Shown here in pieces: positions 4,572 through 32,203 of a stretch of DNA of 64,000 nt. Position 1 is the first letter of the stretch, and each line of letters begins with the position of its first letter. Where the stretch lies: the IMG/VR virus record IMGVR_UViG_2974770163_000001, positions 32,001-96,000 of that record. One strand, written 5' to 3'. The notes beneath the pieces were generated by a model. The model was given only the letters and a program-made list of their open reading frames with translations. It had not been told where the DNA came from and made no database searches. A program made the translations under genes and the position numbers. Origin of the DNA: a virus. Lineage: Duplodnaviria > Caudoviricetes.

Positions 4572-5717
4572 TTAACCCCCAGTTCCTGGGTCAGCAGGAT
4601 TCGCATCTCCCTTCTCAATAAACGTTTTAATTAACGCTTTGTTGAAGATTGGAGAGAAACCGAAGAATGCTTGGTCACCGGAGTCTAGTTCTGTAGGTTG
4701 AGCACTGAACTCAATCTGTGTACTTAATACGTCATCTACTTCCAGTGATGGAGTTGAAAGAATCGCATTAGGAGCAACTAGAACAGCAGCTGGACGAGCA
4801 TCGTCATATTCACCGCCAAGTACAAATGAAACACTGTAACTGTTTACTGTGCTCAGGTTAGTAAGCAGATCTTTATAGATCTCAGCAGTACCCAATGGGT
4901 TAGTGTTTAAGTACGCAGTCAAGTTACCTGTGATAGTGATACCACCAGTAAATGAACTGATTGGGCGGTCAACACGACTTAACGTGTTTGGAGTTAAGTA
5001 GGTGATGTTGTTATTGATAGAGAATGACGCTCCAGTAATAGGAATGTTATACTCTTTCTTAGCTCCTAGATTGTCTTTAACATGAAGAATAGTCAACTTG
5101 TTAACTAGATAGGACTGCTGCAGCTGTACGAATAATTCGTCACTAACTTCAACTGTTTTAATATCGAAAGGTTCTTTATCTAATGGAATTAGCTCAGTAC
5201 CGTTACCAGACCATGTTACCATTGCAATGTTATCGATATCAATATTAATTTCAGCTTGATTTACCTGAACTTTCTTAACTTGGTACCAAACTTCACCTGT
5301 ACGAATATAGATGTTTAGTCCAGCCAACTCGTGGTAAGCAGACGCCTTAAAGTCAACCATAGCGTTTGTTGCGTTTGTATGGAAACCATCTGTACCAGCA
5401 AGATCCAGTGGTTTACCACTTGTCAGTGCATGCCATAACATATAGTCTGGCAACATTACTTGCTTACTAGTGCTATCTATGTAAGGCAGAATGTATGTTG
5501 AGAAGCTCCAGTTTGCAGGGTTTAAAGAGTCATTATAACGCTTACTACCACGAGTAGGCACTGGCCCTGCCTCGTTTACTGTGATGTCTGTAGAGTTCCC
5601 GTCTACACCGAAACTAAGGTCGTCTTGAATCAAGATTTCCATAGTATTAGATTTATTGAAACCCTTGTCTACCGTTGAGACGAATAGTCGGGATTCCCTT
5701 AGTAATTGAATAGCCAT
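4572..5717 (-). CDS. pb6: Major tail tube protein (pb6-like) without the C-terminal Ig domain
   Basis: MAIQLLRESRLFVSTV...RGSKRYNDSLNPANWSFSTYILPY resembles T5 pb6; 381 aa. Confidence 0.92.
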   Translation of the reverse strand: MAIQLLRESRLFVSTVDKGFNKSNTMEILIQDDLSFGVDGNSTDITVNEAGPVPTRGSKRYNDSLNPANWSFSTYILPYIDSTSKQVMLPDYMLWHALTSGKPLDLAGTDGFHTNATNAMVDFKASAYHELAGLNIYIRTGEVWYQVKKVQVNQAEINIDIDNIAMVTWSGNGTELIPLDKEPFDIKTVEVSDELFVQLQQSYLVNKLTILHVKDNLGAKKEYNIPITGASFSINNNITYLTPNTLSRVDRPISSFTGGITITGNLTAYLNTNPLGTAEIYKDLLTNLSTVNSYSVSFVLGGEYDDARPAAVLVAPNAILSTPSLEVDDVLSTQIEFSAQPTELDSGDQAFFGFSPIFNKALIKTFIEKGDANPADPGTGG

Positions 5718-19781: not shown

Positions 19782-20012
19782 TTAATTGTATTCCTGTTTA
19801 ATTCGTGCTATTTGGTGCATTGGGTAAAAGTATTCAGTATCGGGCGTGTCAGTGAAACTCACAAACAAGCCAGCCGTGTCAATATCAACGGTATCGACAT
19901 TCTCAAATACTACCTCTTTTGCATCTTCTTTAAGAAAGCCGTTAGCTTTTAACTTAGACATAACAGCATCAATAAAGATAACCTTAACAACAGTTACATG
20001 TTTCATATTCAT
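19782..20012 (-). CDS. Hypothetical pre-early protein
   Basis: GGAG RBS; YFYPMHQIARIK tail. Confidence 0.7.
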   Translation of the reverse strand: MNMKHVTVVKVIFIDAVMSKLKANGFLKEDAKEVVFENVDTVDIDTAGLFVSFTDTPDTEYFYPMHQIARIKQEYN

Positions 20013-20068
20013 TGCTCCAATGGTAGCCCCTACACAATATAGGGGCGTTGGGTTTAAATTTAAATTAA

Positions 20069-21832
20069 TTAAGCGCGATACTTGCCATTTGTAATTCTTA
20101 CTAGCTGGCGTTGCCCGTTGTTATAGGTAATCAAGTGCGTTTGAGTCCAGCTAGAAGCCCCGATATTATAGCCCATATCTAATGAGCCAGCAACTCCAGC
20201 AGTGTAACATAAGCCGTTTACGCTTGCACTATGAGTGTGACCAGTATTTAAGCGTCCTAACTTCGCAAACTGTTTTGGATTCCCTCGTGAGCCATTAGCC
20301 CCAACATGACCATGACAGCCCATTTCTACGCCAGCGACCTTGAAAGATTCGTCAACAACTAAGAAGCGTATTTGCTCGGCATTCTCTAGCTTAGCTATCT
20401 TTTTAAGCCCTACTTCTAGCGCATTCCAGCCACTGGCGGATTTATGTTCCGCAATATGGCGATATTTATCAAGGTTCATTTCATGATAGAGAATGGCGTT
20501 AGCAGGATCTAGCCCTATATTAACATCCCATGCTTTCAACCAATTTGCTAGGGCTAAATCGTGGTTTGACTCAACGACAACTATCTCACTAAATGGGCGC
20601 ATGATATCGCGGAAAATGTTAGCCGTATCAATGAGATCTTGTTTAACGCTTTCTTGCCCTAAATAATAACGCTCCGCAATAAAATCATAATCACGTCTAT
20701 TGTGATGATTTCGGCTTGTAAAGTCGTGGCTATCATGACAGATAGTAAACTTAGGCTTTAACAAGTCAATCATCGACGGGTAGCCATGCAAGCCAGCACC
20801 CCATGAACAAGCCGCTACAACATGATCAATCTTTTCTGCATGAAGATCACCGAACTGTAAAGCAGAAACATGATTTTCAGCTCTAAACACTTGATCACTT
20901 GTTACATAAGTATCAAGATCATAAAACGAGCCATCATCATTCATGCATTGTAAATGGCGTATAAATGGCGTGTCGTTATCGTCGAATTCTACTAAGATTG
21001 CACCATAGCAATGCAATGATTCTGCTTTCTGACCAGCTAGGCGCTGAATATAATTTCGATGCGTAACCGTTCCCGTTGTAGTTAACTCTCTAACTAGCTC
21101 ACCTTTTAGAGCAGGAATATTAAACATCTGATACTTGGCAGCAGGTACAACCGCATGATGATTGCCTATAATGCTTTCAATGCCTGTTAATGGGTTAATA
21201 GCAGTAGGGGAAATGCATAAAGCACCTAAGAAAGATACTTTCTTGCTTTCGCCTAGAAACACGTTTTCCTCAACAAAATAAGGGGTTAATTCTGGCGCAT
21301 ACCACAATGAATCATCTTGCGCGGTCGGATTCGCGTAGCCTTTCTTGTTATATGCAAATTTAGAGATGATTAATTCAGCCCCTAAATATTCTGCATACGT
21401 TTCTAAGGATTTCAGGAAAGGCACGTTAACAGACGTGTTATTTTGAGCCGTTGTCAAAATAAATGCCTTGCCTGATTTAACTTGCCATTTTGATTGAGCA
21501 GGTTTGAGCGAGCCACCATATACAGGCAAATCAGGGTTATCAGCTTTACGGGCTTTAGCCTTTGTTACTGGCTTGTTCTCATTCAGCCATACTCTGATAG
21601 CAGCCGTGAATTCTGGTTTAATGACTTGCTCCCCGTCCTCGGTGTCATACGCTAGATTTTCCGCTATAACATCCGCTAAACTAGACAGGGCAAACGCTTC
21701 GTTTGCCGTTTTATCTTTTACGGATTCTAGGCGTTTTCCATAGTAATTAACGCCTTTAGCGCATTCTAGCAGGTCAGCCGCCAGATTTTTATCTGCTAAT
21801 AGGTCTGAAATAGTTTTTAAAATGGGATTCAT
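20069..21832 (-). CDS. A1: A1 protein (host DNA degradation / second-step transfer; metallophosphoesterase-like C-terminus)
   Basis: NYYGKRL, TTAQNNT, GDLHAE, SNHD, CHGH and GHTHS motifs; 587 aa. Confidence 0.93.
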   Translation of the reverse strand: MNPILKTISDLLADKNLAADLLECAKGVNYYGKRLESVKDKTANEAFALSSLADVIAENLAYDTEDGEQVIKPEFTAAIRVWLNENKPVTKAKARKADNPDLPVYGGSLKPAQSKWQVKSGKAFILTTAQNNTSVNVPFLKSLETYAEYLGAELIISKFAYNKKGYANPTAQDDSLWYAPELTPYFVEENVFLGESKKVSFLGALCISPTAINPLTGIESIIGNHHAVVPAAKYQMFNIPALKGELVRELTTTGTVTHRNYIQRLAGQKAESLHCYGAILVEFDDNDTPFIRHLQCMNDDGSFYDLDTYVTSDQVFRAENHVSALQFGDLHAEKIDHVVAACSWGAGLHGYPSMIDLLKPKFTICHDSHDFTSRNHHNRRDYDFIAERYYLGQESVKQDLIDTANIFRDIMRPFSEIVVVESNHDLALANWLKAWDVNIGLDPANAILYHEMNLDKYRHIAEHKSASGWNALEVGLKKIAKLENAEQIRFLVVDESFKVAGVEMGCHGHVGANGSRGNPKQFAKLGRLNTGHTHSASVNGLCYTAGVAGSLDMGYNIGASSWTQTHLITYNNGQRQLVRITNGKYRA

Positions 21833-21907
21833 TTATATAGCTCCTAATTAAAGGGTTTTAGTGGTAACGAACTAGCCACCTCCGAAAAGGTGACTAGGGC
21901 GAATCAC

Positions 21908-22372
21908 TTATAAGCGATCGATGCCGTTTTCTTCCATAATGCCCTGTAATACATCATCAGGACATACCTTTTTAACAATCATAATGATTGTATCAAGGTT
22001 GGCTTTTTCAAGACTAGCCCAATCGTCTTTTTCTTGATCGTTGTCGGACATATCACGCTGAAGGGCACGAATCAGAGTGATTTTTTGTAATTTCTTACCG
22101 CCGCCAACTGGCTGCTTTACTTCAAGGGCACGATAAATTTTGTTGCCGTTTTCATCTTTAGAAGATGACAACTTAGTACGGACAGCCGTAGCCGTGTACG
22201 TTTCACCATCACCGCTAATTTGTTCACCGATAGACGCTAGATTATCGACAGCGTTTGCCGCTGTGATTTCCGCATCAGTTGGGGCGGTTGGGTCAGCAAA
22301 TGCCGCTAAATATAAATCGATAGCTTTTGCGGTTACTTCTTCATTCCAGCGTTTTTTAGATGGAGTAGACAT
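21908..22372 (-). CDS. A2: A2 DNA-binding protein (second-step transfer)
   Basis: WNEEVTAKAI...VRTKLSS...VGGG...ASLEKANLDT resembles T5 A2. Confidence 0.88.
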   Translation of the reverse strand: MSTPSKKRWNEEVTAKAIDLYLAAFADPTAPTDAEITAANAVDNLASIGEQISGDGETYTATAVRTKLSSSKDENGNKIYRALEVKQPVGGGKKLQKITLIRALQRDMSDNDQEKDDWASLEKANLDTIIMIVKKVCPDDVLQGIMEENGIDRL

Positions 22373-22570
22373 AATTTAATACCTCATTTTTCATGGTTTA
22401 AGTTTAAGTTATACACTTCTCATTAGTGTATTATGAATAGAGCCTGTCTGTCAAGCCCTATTAATTACACTATCAAGAGGAGTCTAAGCAATGGCAACTG
22501 CTTAATGAAGCCCTGAATTTCAAGGCTTGTTTAAGCATCCAATCTTAGCTATTTCACCGTGTTTTCCGTA

Positions 22571-22638
22571 TTGTTAAAGAGCGTGGTTAGTTGCCTAACC
22601 TTTGAATCTATCTTATATCAGCCGCCTGGTTAAGTCAA
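22571..22638 (-). promoter_or_regulatory. Pre-early promoter P1 with GNRA hairpin and boxA
   Basis: TTGACT-N17-TAAGAT, then GGTTAG-GCAA-CTAACC, then CGCTCTTTAACAA. Confidence 0.8.
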
Positions 22639-22642
22639 GCGT

Positions 22643-22942
22643 TTATTTCCAAATACTTCTATTAATGCTTTGTTGCGATTCTATCGTTTCTACAACTTGA
22701 ATCACTATACCTAGATTATGCCATGCTTCGCTTGCCTTGTCAAACAGTTTTTTATCACCGTTGAAATACTGATCTAGCGTAGCTTTGTAAGCGTTGCGAA
22801 TTATCTTAGCTTCTTTCTTAAGCCTTGTCAAGTCAATTTTATGATCAATTCGCTCGGTTAACGCTTCGTTTGCTGTTATGCCTTGTGAAGCTACTAAGGT
22901 ACATAACACTTGGTTAAAAGATTGTTTTGCCATGTTTGCCAT
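22643..22942 (-). CDS. Pre-early protein, probably conserved in T5-like phages
   Basis: SFNQVL...EALTERIDHKID motif; GAGGA RBS; upstream of A2. Confidence 0.75.
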   Translation of the reverse strand: MANMAKQSFNQVLCTLVASQGITANEALTERIDHKIDLTRLKKEAKIIRNAYKATLDQYFNGDKKLFDKASEAWHNLGIVIQVVETIESQQSINRSIWK

Positions 22943-22980
22943 TCCTCAATAGTTGGGTAGGCGGCTGATATAAGTTAGAT

Positions 22981-23037
22981 TATTAAAGAGCGTGTTTCTA
23001 TGGTTAGTATCTTAAAGCCTAGTAAAGTTTTTGTCAA
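22981..23037 (-). promoter_or_regulatory. Pre-early promoter P2 with boxA
   Basis: TTGACA-N17-TAAGAT, then CGCTCTTTAATA. Confidence 0.8.
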
Positions 23038-23379
23038 TTACTTATTTGAGTATTGCATAACATTTTCAATATATACGATTCTAGCCGCTATATATAAGCA
23101 ACGATAGAATCGTAAAGCTAACTGATCTTTACATATCCCATAGTGAGTGGGCATTTTTGACGCTTCGGGAAATTTTTCTTCTAGGTCTGATAATAAGCGA
23201 ACTAATGAAGCCCATTTAACAGAACCATTATCAAGCCCCTTTTCAAGATCTAACATGATGCAAGTTGCTACCTTATCGATATCATTTCTAACCACTATAG
23301 GAAATGATAATAATTCTAGTATTAACTGTAATGTATCATTGCTTAAAAAGGTTGCTTTAATCTTTCTTACTTTTGCCAT
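23038..23379 (-). CDS. Hypothetical pre-early protein
   Basis: GGAG RBS; flanked by a 22-bp inverted repeat. Confidence 0.7.
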   Translation of the reverse strand: MAKVRKIKATFLSNDTLQLILELLSFPIVVRNDIDKVATCIMLDLEKGLDNGSVKWASLVRLLSDLEEKFPEASKMPTHYGICKDQLALRFYRCLYIAARIVYIENVMQYSNK

Positions 23380-23427
23380 TTGTACTTACTCCGATAGTAT
23401 ACACTAGGCTTTAAGATACTAACCGTA

Positions 23428-23440
23428 TTTTTAAAGAGCG
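23428..23440 (-). promoter_or_regulatory. boxA-like element in the leader of the outermost leftward pre-early transcript
   Basis: CGCTCTTTAAAAA; candidate TTGCTT-N16-TAATAT promoter at about 23528-23555. Confidence 0.6.
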
Positions 23441-23733
23441 TTACTACTAGGAACTTATCCAGTCATTCATATGCCACTGGCGGCTACTTCGTGGGCTTTC
23501 CTTGCCTTGTTCCTTACTATGTGGAGTATATTATCACACTGATTAAAGAAAGCAACTATTATTTTAGATTATTTTGCTGGCGGTAGGATATAAGGAAACG
23601 GGCGCGTGATTATACACAAGTTAACTAGGAAGTAAAGAAAAACTATTTAGTAAAAGATGCAAAAAGAGCTTGCATTTAATAACCGTGGTGCTAATATGTA
23701 TCACATCGAAAGGCAAACAAAGGAGGGAGCAAA

Positions 23734-24813
23734 ATGACCGTCAAGGCACTTAAAAGCAATCGAGCGATAGCTCGAAGCGGTCACATTAACACAATTGAGC
23801 AATTAAGACAATCAGACGTTGGGGGTTTTCCATCAACTAGTATTGTTAGCCGAGCTACGCCTAGGCAGCTTAATAATATAATGCATACGGCAGGCAATGA
23901 GGAGCAATCTGTATTAACTCCTTTAAGTAGTCAAAGTGCGTATAAACATATTAAAAATTTGCTTGATTTACTTGTTTCCGGTGTGGTAGAATACATTACA
24001 ATCTACTCGCCAGATGGTACGTTAATAAGTGATCACTATTATTCTACACGTCGATCTATGGAGGAGGATTGCGATTCCGCTTACTCTAAGGCTAAGGACG
24101 ATTTACTAATCTTAGCTAGATCTAGTAATGGCATCATGTTAACATGGGGTAGCTATGACGCTAGAAAGTCGGCAGGTGTCGGGGTCAAGGTAGAGTGTGA
24201 GGTTTTCAATCAAAATGATAACCTATTTGACGCTATCTATGATATATTTAACCATGCTAACTATAACGATTTAATTGACGTGGATTTATCCGATAAGCTA
24301 CGCAATCAGGGCGTTATTATACAGGGTCATACAGTTAGCGAGAACAAGTATACACAAGTAATTATAGAGGAATTTTTAAAATCATCTATAAGCGAAGCTG
24401 GCGAAACAGCAGAGCAACCAATCGAAACCAAAGAGGAAACTAGCAAAATGAAAACAACATTCAGCACTATCTTAGCAGAAAACAAAGCAGCAGCAATCAA
24501 CGCTGGCGAGATGGAAACGGGGCGTTTAGTCGTTAATCGTATTGTGGCAGTCGTTAAAAAGCGTGCTCCGCTAATGGTTAAAGGTTACATTGATACACCA
24601 GTAGGGCGCATTGCAGTAGCAAATTTATTTGCCGCTTTAGTGCGAGAATATCTACCTGATAACGCACTGGCAGGACGTGCGGCAGACGGGGCGGTGAAGT
24701 CGGCAGCTTATGAAGTATTGCGCGATATTGATATACCAGCAATTCTGGAAGAAGTATTGGCAGGATTCAAAGAAGCGGAACCAGCACCAGCAGACGAAAA
24801 GATCGCACTGTAA
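23734..24813 (+). CDS. Hypothetical pre-early protein (possible internal start at MKTTFS)
   Basis: GGAGG RBS; Ala-rich C-terminal domain preceded by GAGGA. Confidence 0.8.
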   Translation: MTVKALKSNRAIARSGHINTIEQLRQSDVGGFPSTSIVSRATPRQLNNIMHTAGNEEQSVLTPLSSQSAYKHIKNLLDLLVSGVVEYITIYSPDGTLISDHYYSTRRSMEEDCDSAYSKAKDDLLILARSSNGIMLTWGSYDARKSAGVGVKVECEVFNQNDNLFDAIYDIFNHANYNDLIDVDLSDKLRNQGVIIQGHTVSENKYTQVIIEEFLKSSISEAGETAEQPIETKEETSKMKTTFSTILAENKAAAINAGEMETGRLVVNRIVAVVKKRAPLMVKGYIDTPVGRIAVANLFAALVREYLPDNALAGRAADGAVKSAAYEVLRDIDIPAILEEVLAGFKEAEPAPADEKIAL

Positions 24814-24861
24814 CATAAAGGCAGGGGCTAGAACTTAGCCCCTAATTAAAGAGGTGATACA

Positions 24862-25263
24862 ATGGCAAAAGTTATCAATTTTGAGTGTGTACACGTCTTA
24901 AATATCCGTACAACGGGGCAAGCGTTATCGTGGAAAAGCGCACTAGAACAGATTAGTAAGTGTACTAAATGCCAATATGTTACTGTTACATTAGGTCGCT
25001 TGGTTTTCCGTATTGACTGGCTAATACTGGCTAGTATTTACGAATCTTTACAATTAAATATGCCGTTTAGTGTTGCAGTAGGGGGCGAAATCTGGTATAT
25101 TGAACAATATCAGGACGTGGAACAATTGTTTTATAACGTTCCTGTAAGCCGTCTTTTTATGAAAGAGGGAGTAGCTTATTATGTGGGCGATATTATCGGG
25201 CTATGTGGAGAAGTTACTAAGGGTCAAGGGATTACGAATCATAGTACTGCTAATTTTAGCTGA
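24862..25263 (+). CDS. Hypothetical pre-early protein
   Basis: GAGGTG RBS. Confidence 0.75.
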   Translation: MAKVINFECVHVLNIRTTGQALSWKSALEQISKCTKCQYVTVTLGRLVFRIDWLILASIYESLQLNMPFSVAVGGEIWYIEQYQDVEQLFYNVPVSRLFMKEGVAYYVGDIIGLCGEVTKGQGITNHSTANFS

Positions 25264-25314
25264 GTTATTATATCGTGTTTTCTTTGAATCTAAGTACTAC
25301 TTTTATACGCTCCA

Positions 25315-25422
25315 ATGACCATATTTAAAGTGTTGCTAGTTAGTGGCTGTATATGTATAGTTTGGCATATATTAGCCCACTGGCTAGATAGTAGACGCTT
25401 AAAACGTATGGGTAAAGGCTGA
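25315..25422 (+). CDS. Small membrane peptide (35 aa, MTIFKVLLVSGCICIVWHILAHWLDSRRLKRMGKG)
   Basis: Hydrophobic N-terminus and basic tail; weak RBS. Confidence 0.45.
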   Translation: MTIFKVLLVSGCICIVWHILAHWLDSRRLKRMGKG

Positions 25423-25445
25423 TATCTAACCTATAGGGGGTTATA

Positions 25446-25562
25446 ATGTGGGATCTATTTCTATCCCCCAATGGGGATTTAAGCTGGCTTTCTTTGTTGC
25501 TGGCGGCTGTATGCACTATAGCTATTTTAGTGATCTTTGATGATAACGAGCCGTTACTATAG
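25446..25562 (+). CDS. Small membrane peptide (38 aa, MWDLFLSPNGDLSWLSLLLAAVCTIAILVIFDDNEPLL)
   Basis: AGGGGG RBS. Confidence 0.6.
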   Translation: MWDLFLSPNGDLSWLSLLLAAVCTIAILVIFDDNEPLL

Positions 25563-25570
25563 GGTTTTAT

Positions 25571-25657
25571 ATGAAGTGTGACAAGGTAGGCGTATATTGC
25601 AACATTCTAGCGGCTGGCATCTTTGGGTTAATGATTTTATCATGTATCTTAAAGTAA
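25571..25657 (+). CDS. Small membrane peptide (28 aa, MKCDKVGVYCNILAAGIFGLMILSCILK)
   Basis: AGGG RBS; follows the previous stop. Confidence 0.5.
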   Translation: MKCDKVGVYCNILAAGIFGLMILSCILK

Positions 25658-25740
25658 TTCTTTATATGTTGGCTATTTTATGCCCTGTGTTCGGGGCTTC
25701 AAGCGGCTTAATGTGGTTAATGACTGTATTAGCAGGATAG
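25642..25740 (+). CDS. Small membrane peptide (32 aa, MYLKVILYMLAILCPVFGASSGLMWLMTVLAG)
   Basis: Overlaps the previous ORF; strongly hydrophobic. Confidence 0.45.
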   Translation: MYLKVILYMLAILCPVFGASSGLMWLMTVLAG

Positions 25741-26140
25741 CACAAAAAGCTAAAACAATTTAATCTAGATAGGGTAATATTACCCTACCAACACAAAACG
25801 AGGGTTTAAATATGGAAAAATTAAAACTGGCATTCCCTACTGCATTTTCTGAGCTAGTTGAATGCTTTGGGGAAAAGCAAGCTGAAATTGAGCTTGAGAA
25901 GTTAGTCGAGCGTCAAAAGGTTAACCCTAAATTAGATTTAGAAGATAAGCCATTATTAGCCGCTTTTGTGTGGGAAGAAACGGAACAGGGTCATGAGTAC
26001 TGGCGAGAGCTTTTATACTCAAAAGACCTACTATCACCTTTGTTCTATTTCTTGTCCGACTCTAGCCATACAGACGACGAATAGCACGAAAAGCTAAAAC
26101 ATTTAAATTCAGGTAGGGTAATATAGCCCTACCAACACAA
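25738..26140 (+). repeat. Duplicated ~60-bp leader cassette (about 25738-25797 and 26082-26141)
   Basis: TAGCAC.AAAAGCTAAAACA.TT.AAT..AG.TAGGGTAATAT..CCCTACCAACACAAA twice, each upstream of a paralogous ORF. Confidence 0.85.
25812..26084 (+). CDS. Hypothetical protein with AAFxW...QGxEYW motif
   Basis: GAGGG RBS; AAFVWEETEQGHEYW. Confidence 0.8.
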   Translation: MEKLKLAFPTAFSELVECFGEKQAEIELEKLVERQKVNPKLDLEDKPLLAAFVWEETEQGHEYWRELLYSKDLLSPLFYFLSDSSHTDDE

Positions 26141-31573: not shown

Positions 31574-32203
31574 CTACTCCGTAATAACTAAGTTGTTTAA
31601 CTTACCCTTTACTTTATCTAGGAAGACTTGATCAGGCTGGTAGAAGCTTCTGATTTGCACTAGCTTCTTCAGTGCCCAGTTAGATGCAGCTTTCTTAGAC
31701 TTACTAAAGCTAATAGTTTCTGCGTTTCGATAAATGTCTGCCAACTTAACCTGAGCAACTGCCGGTACGAAACTATATAGCTTATTGTTAGTCAATTGCT
31801 GGTCAATATCTTTAGTTAGTCGGTCAACGATAAATGCAACATCATCACCAAATGCTCTTCTAACACTTTCTAGGTTGAGGTTTGTATCCTCAACGACATC
31901 GTGAAGCCATGCAGCGCATAGAGTCACGAGATGCTCATAGTCATTTGGGAAATCAAATTCTCTACCAACAATACGAGCTACCCCTGCTAGATGCATGTTC
32001 GTATAGTCGTCTTCATGACTAAAGCCTTCTCCTGAACGGAAAGCCTGATTTTTATGGGCTATTCTAGCTACGGAGCCTGCAATTTCCGCAGCAATCTCCT
32101 CTATATCTTCACCCTCTAGCAGAATCTCTAGATTAGCTCGGTTTTCCCAAGTAGGGTGTTTCAGTATAAAGATTACTGCGTCAATTAGTCTTTTGTCTTT
32201 CAT
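31574..32203 (-). CDS. HD-domain hydrolase (RelA/SpoT-hydrolase, Mesh1/SAH-like)
   Basis: AHKNQ..R, H..GVA, AAWLHDVVEDT, FG.DVA.IV..LT and VKLAD motifs. Confidence 0.8.
   Translation of the reverse strand: MKDKRLIDAVIFILKHPTWENRANLEILLEGEDIEEIAAEIAGSVARIAHKNQAFRSGEGFSHEDDYTNMHLAGVARIVGREFDFPNDYEHLVTLCAAWLHDVVEDTNLNLESVRRAFGDDVAFIVDRLTKDIDQQLTNNKLYSFVPAVAQVKLADIYRNAETISFSKSKKAASNWALKKLVQIRSFYQPDQVFLDKVKGKLNNLVITE

Follow-up and report, generated by a model that had tools for sequence, protein, structure and literature searches.

Genomic Context of the Pre-Early Operon

The DNA analyzed here, referred to as the window, is a stretch of 64,000 nucleotides (nt) covering positions 32,001 to 96,000 of the IMG/VR virus record IMGVR_UViG_2974770163_000001 (109,434 nt), which represents a T5-like phage. 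Its sequence is 94% identical to that of Providencia phage vB_PreS_PR1 (PR1; genus Priunavirus, family Demerecviridae) in the region of the terminal repeat (first-step transfer). The minus strand of the window carries the pre-early operon, in which an open reading frame (ORF) of 113 amino acids (aa), an ORF of 99 aa, gene A2 and gene A1 follow one another. The subject of this analysis is the frame around the two small ORFs, which consists of promoters, boxA elements and the arms of two long-range inverted repeats, and which resembles the arrangement found in ribosomal RNA (rrn) operons. When PR1 was compared with the window, the leaders, boxAs and arms were invariant, whereas the ORFs differed at many positions. 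No PHROG or Pfam family matched either the 113-aa or the 99-aa ORF.

boxA Elements and Long-Range Arms in the Window

The window contains CGCTCTTTAA three times, in each case on the minus strand (at 23431-23440, 22983-22992 and 22574-22583), compared with 0.15 copies expected by chance, and the 9-mer GCTCTTTAA occurs only at these three sites in the whole virus record. The three elements (GCTCTTTAAAA, GCTCTTTAATA and GCTCTTTAACA) all match the gamma-proteobacterial boxA consensus GYTCTTTAANA described by Baniulyte et al. (PMC5725501). All of them lie on the sense strand of the operon, 10-90 nt past the predicted transcription starts (the promoters being consensus matches only), and the distance from boxA to the start codon of the enclosed genes is 41-52 nt.

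Two inverted repeats, I1 (22999-23023 / 23403-23427, 25 nt, 96%, and perfect over 23002-23023 / 23403-23424) and I2 (22605-22627 / 22959-22981, 23 nt, 96%), ranked at the top of a repeat search, with an arm spacing of 331-379 nt. No other inverted repeat with a score of at least 20 and a loop of 100-900 nt was found when the entire window was scanned. Both kinds of element are statistically exceptional, and shuffled sequences rule out a chance origin for them: none of 100 shuffles reached three boxA copies, and none of 20 contained such a repeat. Each repeat encloses a single ORF (23379-23038 in I1 and 22942-22643 in I2). The distal arms reach the start predicted for an internal promoter or stop 2 nt short of it, and the whole distal arm is present only in transcripts that read through from the promoter upstream. 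In both read-through RNAs, the long helix appeared in the minimum-energy as well as the centroid fold (z scores of -2.86 and -4.58), and a promoter and terminator scan found no minus-strand terminator-like site from the leaders to A2. Every element listed in the initial annotation of this locus, namely three boxAs, a boxB-like hairpin, two arm pairs, their overlap with promoters and one gene per repeat, was recovered in this analysis (Table 1).

Table 1. Features of the pre-early region of the window, in the order in which they would be transcribed.
Feature	Position	Strand	Remarks
Upstream sigma-70-like promoter, TTTACT-16-TATAAT	23609..23636	-	10/12 matches; consensus match only; conserved in PR1
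First leader, proximal promoter (TTGCTT, 16 nt, TGaTAATAT)	23528..23555	-	Read by eye; start expected near 23521
Structured leader RNA motif, about 65 nt	23450..23513	-	Between the first promoter and boxA 1
boxA 1 (CGCTCTTTAAAA)	23429..23440	-	Fits GYTCTTTAANA
Proximal arm, helix 1	23403..23427	-	3 nt past the GCTCTTTAA core
Enclosed gene 1, 113 aa	23038..23379	-	ORF; PR1 counterpart PR1_7 is a hypothetical protein
Promoter P2, TTGACA 23037-23032, 17 nt, TAAGAT 23014-23009	22999..23037	-	Holds the distal arm of helix 1, 23023-22999
boxA 2 (CGCTCTTTAATA)	22981..22992	-	7 nt past the distal arm of helix 1
Proximal arm, helix 2	22959..22981	-	1 nt past the boxA core
Enclosed gene 2, 99 aa	22643..22942	-	ORF; annotated in PR1 as a 96-aa form, second ATG at 22933
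Promoter P1, TTGACT 22638-22633, 17 nt, TAAGAT 22615-22610	22605..22638	-	Holds the distal arm of helix 2, 22627-22605
boxB-like hairpin GGTTAG-gcaa-CTAACC	22585..22600	-	6-bp stem, 4-nt loop, 2 nt before the boxA 3 core
boxA 3 (CGCTCTTTAACAA)	22571..22583	-	No downstream partner arm found
Untranslated stretch with two local hairpins	22455..22570	-	From boxA 3 to the A2 promoter; same sequence in PR1
A2 promoter-like site (22454-22425) and gene A2 (22372-21908)	21908..22454	-	A2 is phrog_1725, E 3.9e-27
Gene A1, 587 aa	20069..21832	-	Anchor for collecting relatives

Conservation and Covariation in T5-like Phages

The distribution of this arrangement was examined in relatives of the phage. A search of IMG/VR with the A2 protein gave no confirmed relative and tblastn found distant A2s only, and A1 was therefore used as the anchor. 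Since PR1 is too close to be informative, eight further Demerecviridae records were gathered for the region upstream of A1, which resulted in a set of nine records (PR1 included) from different genera. The 9-mer GCTCTTTAA was present on the operon strand upstream of A2/A1 in eight of the nine records, Aeromonas phage AhSzw-1 being the one without it, and seven of the nine contain a boxA followed by an arm complementary to a site 140-410 nt downstream. In most records, the distal arm spans the -10 hexamer of the next promoter, just ahead of the next boxA, and in most genera it covers the spacer, the -10 and the +1 of that promoter. In Enterobacter phage KKP_3711, it is located past the -10 and does not cover it. 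The overlap with the -10 is not constant, and the invariant trait is that both arms adjoin boxA sites.

The geometry of the units is similar across these phages. The arm starts 1-6 nt past boxA in most units and 17-18 nt past it in a few (range among the relatives 1-18 nt; 3 nt and 1 nt for the two units of the window). Arm lengths range from 14 to 29 nt, and a further boxA, where present, follows 1-37 nt past the distal arm. In many units, including the third one of the window, a hairpin stands directly ahead of boxA. The arm sequences themselves are unrelated both between genera and between successive units of the same phage, as illustrated by Pectobacterium phage DU_PP_V, which carries three different arm pairs in series. 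The enclosed genes also vary from genus to genus, while the frame around them is kept.

A larger sample was obtained by an alignment search with the A1 protein, which retrieved 80 IMG/VR loci comprising, after duplicates were set aside, 32 T5-like loci and 36 A1-like loci from other phage groups. The boxA and the arm pair were found in all 32 T5-like loci. None of the 36 other loci has a boxA upstream of A1, and one of them has a downstream copy without arms.

The manner in which the arms differ between phages indicates the molecule in which they are constrained. The non-Watson-Crick positions of 24 unique arm pairs comprise 35 G.U/U.G, 9 A.C/C.A and 4 others, counts that, like the covariation counts that follow, include related sequences and do not represent independent events. 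Covariation of the arms across T5-like genomes, which the initial annotation had named as a check on its proposal, was assessed in an alignment of 29 T5/Epseptimavirus-type units with 28 pairs. In this helix, 99.1% of the cells were paired, compared with 24-44% in controls slid by 1-3 columns; four of the 28 pairs had changes on both sides, and another seven varied on one side only and remained paired, all of them through G.U. One pair, for example, was C-G in 14 sequences, U.G in 13 and U-A in 2. Because a G.U on the sense strand corresponds to an A.C on the other strand, the constraint is on pairing in the sense transcript, and the formation of the arm helix in read-through sense RNA is well supported by these alignments.

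Comparison with rrn Operons, Lambda nut Sites and T7

The closest known counterpart of the phage units is the leader-trailer helix of rrn operons. When the same script was applied to rrnH of Escherichia coli K-12, it identified the leader boxA tGCTCTTTAAcaattt followed, after 3 nt, by a 26-nt arm whose complement lies 22 nt past the 3' end of 16S rRNA, and a second boxA, GCTCTTTAAaaatctgg, in the spacer. The primary site of RNase III in rrn operons is the leader-trailer duplex, in which boxC takes part, and boxC is described as being delivered to its partner by a complex tethered through Nus factors and SuhB (PMC8632103). The phage units share with this system the position of the arm (22-29 nt in most units) right after boxA, the partner just past the cargo and the further boxA past the distal arm, as well as the order of hairpin and then boxA, which is not the order in lambda. 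Moreover, the sequences GCTCTTTAAcaattt and GCTCTTTAAaaatctgg are common to E. coli rrnH and T5-like phages, and several phage boxAs match E. coli boxAs over 15-17 nt including the flank. The rrn-like chain of boxAs and long-range arms looping single genes, as it was put forward in the initial annotation, is strongly supported by its conservation across genera, by the compensatory and G.U-biased changes and by the geometry of rrnH.

On the other hand, several differences from rrn operons were noted. What the phage units enclose is a small protein-coding gene (100-340 nt) and not a 1.5-kb rRNA, the loops are 140-410 nt, the distal arm coincides with an internal promoter, and expression of the operon falls in the first minutes of infection; it is by analogy that Nus loading and RNase III cleavage are ascribed to this operon. 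Since the cargo in the window is a 113-aa or a 99-aa ORF, the phage unit should be described as working like the rrn helix and not as a member of the same class.

Two phage systems also offer partial parallels. As in lambda nut, a boxA is located in the leader of the earliest operon of the phage, and the use of host Nus factors would be the expected consequence. However, the phage order is hairpin and then boxA, whereas lambda has boxA and then boxB together with the N protein; no N-type protein can exist when the first T5-like transcript is made, no GNRA-like boxB pentaloop was identified in the phage, and the long-range arms have no counterpart in lambda. In the early region of T7, likewise a virulent phage, intergenic signals of double-stranded RNA separate the individual mRNAs of the first operon. 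The RNase III sites of T7 are local hairpins without boxA, whereas the helices of the window are long-range and enclose a gene.

The Corresponding Repeat in Phage T5

In T5 itself, an arm pair is located at 4951-4975 / 4683-4707 around T5.008 (hdi), whose product Hdi has been reported as an FtsZ-directed division inhibitor (PMC10714956). According to a 2026 preprint, two characterised promoters, P-H22 and P-D/E20, overlap hdi fully or partially. The repeat itself is already known: it has been annotated as IRA/IRA' around hdi. A preprint by Davison places IRA, IRA' and IRB in the left terminal repeat, within Repeat Region 1 (4682-5310), a region that it describes as conserved and to which it assigns no function. 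The words promoter, antitermination and RNase III are absent from its text. The equation of IRA/IRA' with the arms described here rests on coordinates, and the GenBank feature table lists no such feature. The first pair of the window shares with IRA/IRA' a 13-nt core (ATCTTAAAGCCTA / TAGGCTTTAAGAT) and the same placement relative to boxA and the next promoter, the distal arm of T5 overlapping P-D/E20. In contrast to the two serial pairs, two orphan genes and three boxAs of the window, T5 has a single pair, which encloses hdi, and a single strict boxA. No description of boxA or of RNA pairing was found for T5 in the literature searched, subscription papers and supplements being outside the search.

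Public RNA libraries covered this region for T5 only, in the form of assembled contigs, which give no evidence for or against RNase III ends. A single contig spans the whole 1.8 kb in two T5 RNA libraries. In one RNA immunoprecipitation (RIP)-type library, a contig with a depth of 135 extends from the first base of boxA (2859 in the T5 copy L027) to 3329 and crosses hdi and the P-D/E20/arm region, and the contig upstream of it has a depth of 8. RNA that covers both sides of the distal arm therefore exists in T5, which does not imply a single transcript.

Several additional observations were made in T5. The RIP-type library also contains a 120-nt contig with a depth of 2837 (L027 3155-3274, about 4573-4692 in T5), which runs from the start region of P-D/E20 to just past the boxA-like GTTCTTTAAAT and is followed by adapter sequence, and contigs of two studies break at L027 3330 (about 4517 in T5), right after a hairpin. 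These observations are at most a weak hint that T5 has a processing site and a leader RNA which is short and abundant. In addition, T5.009 (positions 4915-5022 of the T5 record L007) covers the hairpins and the boxA of the first leader, and for this reason it may not be a real gene.

Proposed Mechanism and Alternative Explanations

Taken together, we consider it rather likely that the pre-early operon is built like an rrn operon, combining antitermination through Nus factors and boxA with long-range helices that bracket single early genes. Host RNA polymerase would initiate at strong sigma-70 promoters, and the boxA in each leader would load host NusB/NusE(S10)-NusA-NusG-SuhB on the elongating polymerase, as in rrn leaders, so that transcription would be fast and Rho-resistant and the RNA would stay tethered to the exit channel by its boxA end. 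Immediately 3' of boxA, a stretch of 22-25 nt would form the 5' strand of a helix whose 3' strand lies past the stop codon of the next gene, on the next promoter. In read-through RNA, the tethered arm would be delivered to its partner and the gene closed in a loop of 330-380 nt, in the same way as boxC is brought to the 16S trailer. The resulting duplex of 22-25 base pairs (bp), whose length is sufficient for RNase III, would probably be cut by this enzyme, which would yield a monocistronic mRNA with paired ends and, at the same time, a downstream RNA starting approximately at the internal promoter's own start, right before the next boxA, where the Nus complex could be reloaded. Nus loading, tether-assisted annealing and RNase III cleavage, together with their consequences, are plausible by analogy with rrn operons.

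Several points weigh against this rrn-like mechanism. The third boxA has no partner arm in the sequence searched downstream of it, and the arm pair is absent from two of the nine Demerecviridae records, namely Vibrio phage Chester, in which boxA is present, and AhSzw-1, which has no strict boxA either. The relatedness of the sequences behind the G.U and covariation counts, mentioned above, is another such point. Two strong promoter-like sites on the minus strand within the 99-aa ORF (22803-22831, TTGACA-17-TAAGAT; and 22715-22743, TTGACA-17-CATAAT with TG) would, like P-H22 inside hdi of T5, give RNAs that contain the distal arm alone. The boundaries of the T5 contigs, located at the first base of boxA and, in the distal arm, at the promoter start, are off the positions expected from simple mid-arm cuts, and in the literature searched no paper was found on NusB/NusE binding or RNase III cleavage in T5. 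Furthermore, a boxA located about 50 nt before the start codon of suhB represses translation and promotes Rho termination (PMC5725501), and at the similar distance seen here boxA may therefore act in either direction.

The latter example also underlies the best of the alternatives, which we nevertheless regard as unlikely. According to this explanation, the helices form in the RNA without any role of RNase III; the loop would tune translation or shield the mRNA ends from RNase E and 3' exonucleases, and boxA would serve mainly as a translational or Rho attenuator of early proteins, which are often toxic, as at suhB. Pairing in the sense RNA fits such a non-processing loop as well, the boxAs of the enclosed genes stand within the range of suhB repression, and the T5 RNA contigs cross the distal arm unbroken. 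In addition, the gene enclosed in T5 is the toxic division inhibitor hdi, for which cloning difficulty was reported in the 2026 preprint. However, perfect RNA duplexes of 22-25 bp are canonical substrates of enterobacterial RNase III, the geometry of the units copies the rrn helix that RNase III cuts, and the presence of a new boxA directly past the distal arm is easiest to explain by severing of the first tether.

A second alternative, also raised in the initial annotation, is that the arm in the leader works in trans or on DNA: as an RNA able to pair with the non-template strand at the next -10/+1, it would hinder open complex formation and thereby time a cascade of promoters. Coverage of the spacer, -10 and +1 by the distal arm in most genera would agree with this idea, and tolerance of G.U would also be valid for an RNA:DNA hybrid. 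It gained nothing from the comparisons, however, and is very unlikely: the distal arm of KKP_3711 is off the -10, the length and position of the arms follow the boxA sites and not the promoter hexamers, and the intramolecular helix dominates the predicted folds. To our knowledge, there is also no precedent for an RNA that displaces sigma from the non-template strand.

The least probable explanation is that the repeats act as DNA, for example as paired protein sites (such as looping in the A1/A2 shut-off), inverted partial copies of promoters or sites of cassette recombination. In its favour, the enclosed genes differ between genera in a constant frame, the T5 literature available lists the repeat as the DNA feature IRA/IRA' only, and a weak plus-strand promoter-like site (23373-23400) lies directly against the first proximal arm. 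However, the successive pairs of a given phage show no sequence relationship and could not be read by a single common DNA-binding protein, the proximal arm has no -35 partner, and the sense-strand G.U mismatches, which would be A.C on the other strand and are irrelevant to DNA binding, led to the rejection of a mobile-element or cassette interpretation.

A Structured RNA Motif in the First Leader

Besides the boxA and arm units, a structured motif was identified in the first leader. It consists of an outer stem (GGAAC/GTTCC), a GGC..GCC hairpin, the linker CACGAAGUAGCC and a second hairpin (CCAGU..ACUGG) with the loop GGCAUAUGAAUG. Its conserved core is CACGAAGUAGCCGCC, with the loop GGCAUAUGAA, and copies occur in the collected loci L002 (2476-2567), L003 (2489-2580) and L093-L172. 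The motif is 83-92% identical to unannotated DNA located just past a cI-like repressor gene and a PL-like promoter in ST64B, SfV, SfII, mEp460 and many other lambdoid phages, in which the copies likewise start a few nt after the promoter. A boxA of the form GYTCTTTAANA was found within about 150 nt past the motif in 13 of 54 unique lambdoid copies, as is the case in the window. An exact 15-mer of the motif matches at least 119 IMG/VR stretches, some of the GC-rich matches being false positives in coding sequence. By megablast, the motif was detected in 247 of 5,426 complete E. coli genomes, with no annotated feature among the 12 matches listed.

An alignment of 51 copies revealed a three-way junction with compensatory changes in 7 of 15 pairs; one of these pairs, for example, is GC in 19 copies, UA in 16, CG in 11 and AU in 5. 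A covariance model built from it (R1) scored the window at 75.5 bits (E 2.7e-21, 23523-23430), the window being itself a row of the seed alignment, and also found PR1, ST64B and Eeyore. When folded alone, the leader was not better than shuffles (z +0.47), and therefore the support for the motif comes from covariation and not from energy.

Relationships with known RNAs were also investigated. A search of Rfam with positions 20000-26000 gave nothing at E values up to 1. At E values up to 10, R1 had no match to HK022 putL, to the annotated putL-like RNA of HK639 or to T5-type leaders (13 T5-like loci searched), and a blastn comparison of the leader with the PL/putL region of HK022 gave no meaningful match. 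Although the T5-type leader with its two hairpins (GUAGG..CCUAC, GGCGG..CCGCC) shares short words with the motif, the idea of a diverged copy was dropped. The put RNAs of HK022 are antiterminators that bind RNA polymerase from the start of the PL/PR transcripts and act in cis, through the beta' zinc-binding domain, with no need of protein factors. The motif is similar to them in that it stands at the putL position in lambdoid prophages, right after PL, is about 65 nt long and is highly structured. It differs in the lack of a sequence or model match and in forming a three-way junction, whereas put RNA is described as two side-by-side stem-loops (PMC9378689). The HK639 record also annotates an 'M3-like RNA' after cII (37910-37969 of L212), which had no match to the window motif.

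As the motif is located on the first transcript of a virulent phage, it would have to act with host factors alone. These results make it a well-supported candidate for a new cis-acting transcription-control RNA.

Other Features of the Region

The two promoter-like sites upstream of the motif are possibly tandem promoters, the one at 23609..23636 being the first, as judged from their sequences. The promoter scan did not flag the proximal site, whose -35 matches at only 3 of 6 positions. In comparison with PR1, the sequence of this site is wholly different, while the spacing between -35 and -10 is kept and the flanks on both sides are identical.

Downstream of the third boxA, the untranslated 115 nt at 22455-22570 contain the hairpins AAGCC..GGGCTT and TAAGCA..TGCTTA and are identical in PR1 although the adjoining ORFs differ. 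This stretch may represent a small RNA or a structured leader. On the opposite side of the operon, a divergent plus-strand gene starts at 23734.

Implications for T5-like Phages

The new findings of this study are the chain of two stems and three boxAs around orphan genes and the covarying motif of the first leader, which is shared with lambdoid PL leaders and absent from Rfam. A broader interpretation may be offered tentatively, and we consider it doubtful: T5-like phages would hijack the rrn-type Nus/SuhB tethering complex to form RNase III-processed single-gene RNA cassettes in series around host-takeover genes, which would be the first use of the rRNA folding and processing machinery on mRNAs, and the leader of about 65 nt in the Providencia lineage, shared with the PL leaders of hundreds of lambdoid prophages, would define a new class of put-like, protein-independent antiterminators.

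T5 is a classic model, and its pre-early programme, which includes host shut-off, DNA degradation and second-step transfer, is poorly understood at the RNA level. If boxA is conserved in every leader, Nus factors would be host dependency factors for a family of virulent phages used in biocontrol and therapy. Moreover, the geometry of the arms and boxAs may provide a small and genetically tractable system for studying a long-standing proposal, in which the rrn antitermination complex retains the 5' arm at the exit channel and thereby assists long-range RNA pairing as a chaperone, as a 350-nt loop around a reporter would be far easier to manipulate than 16S rRNA.

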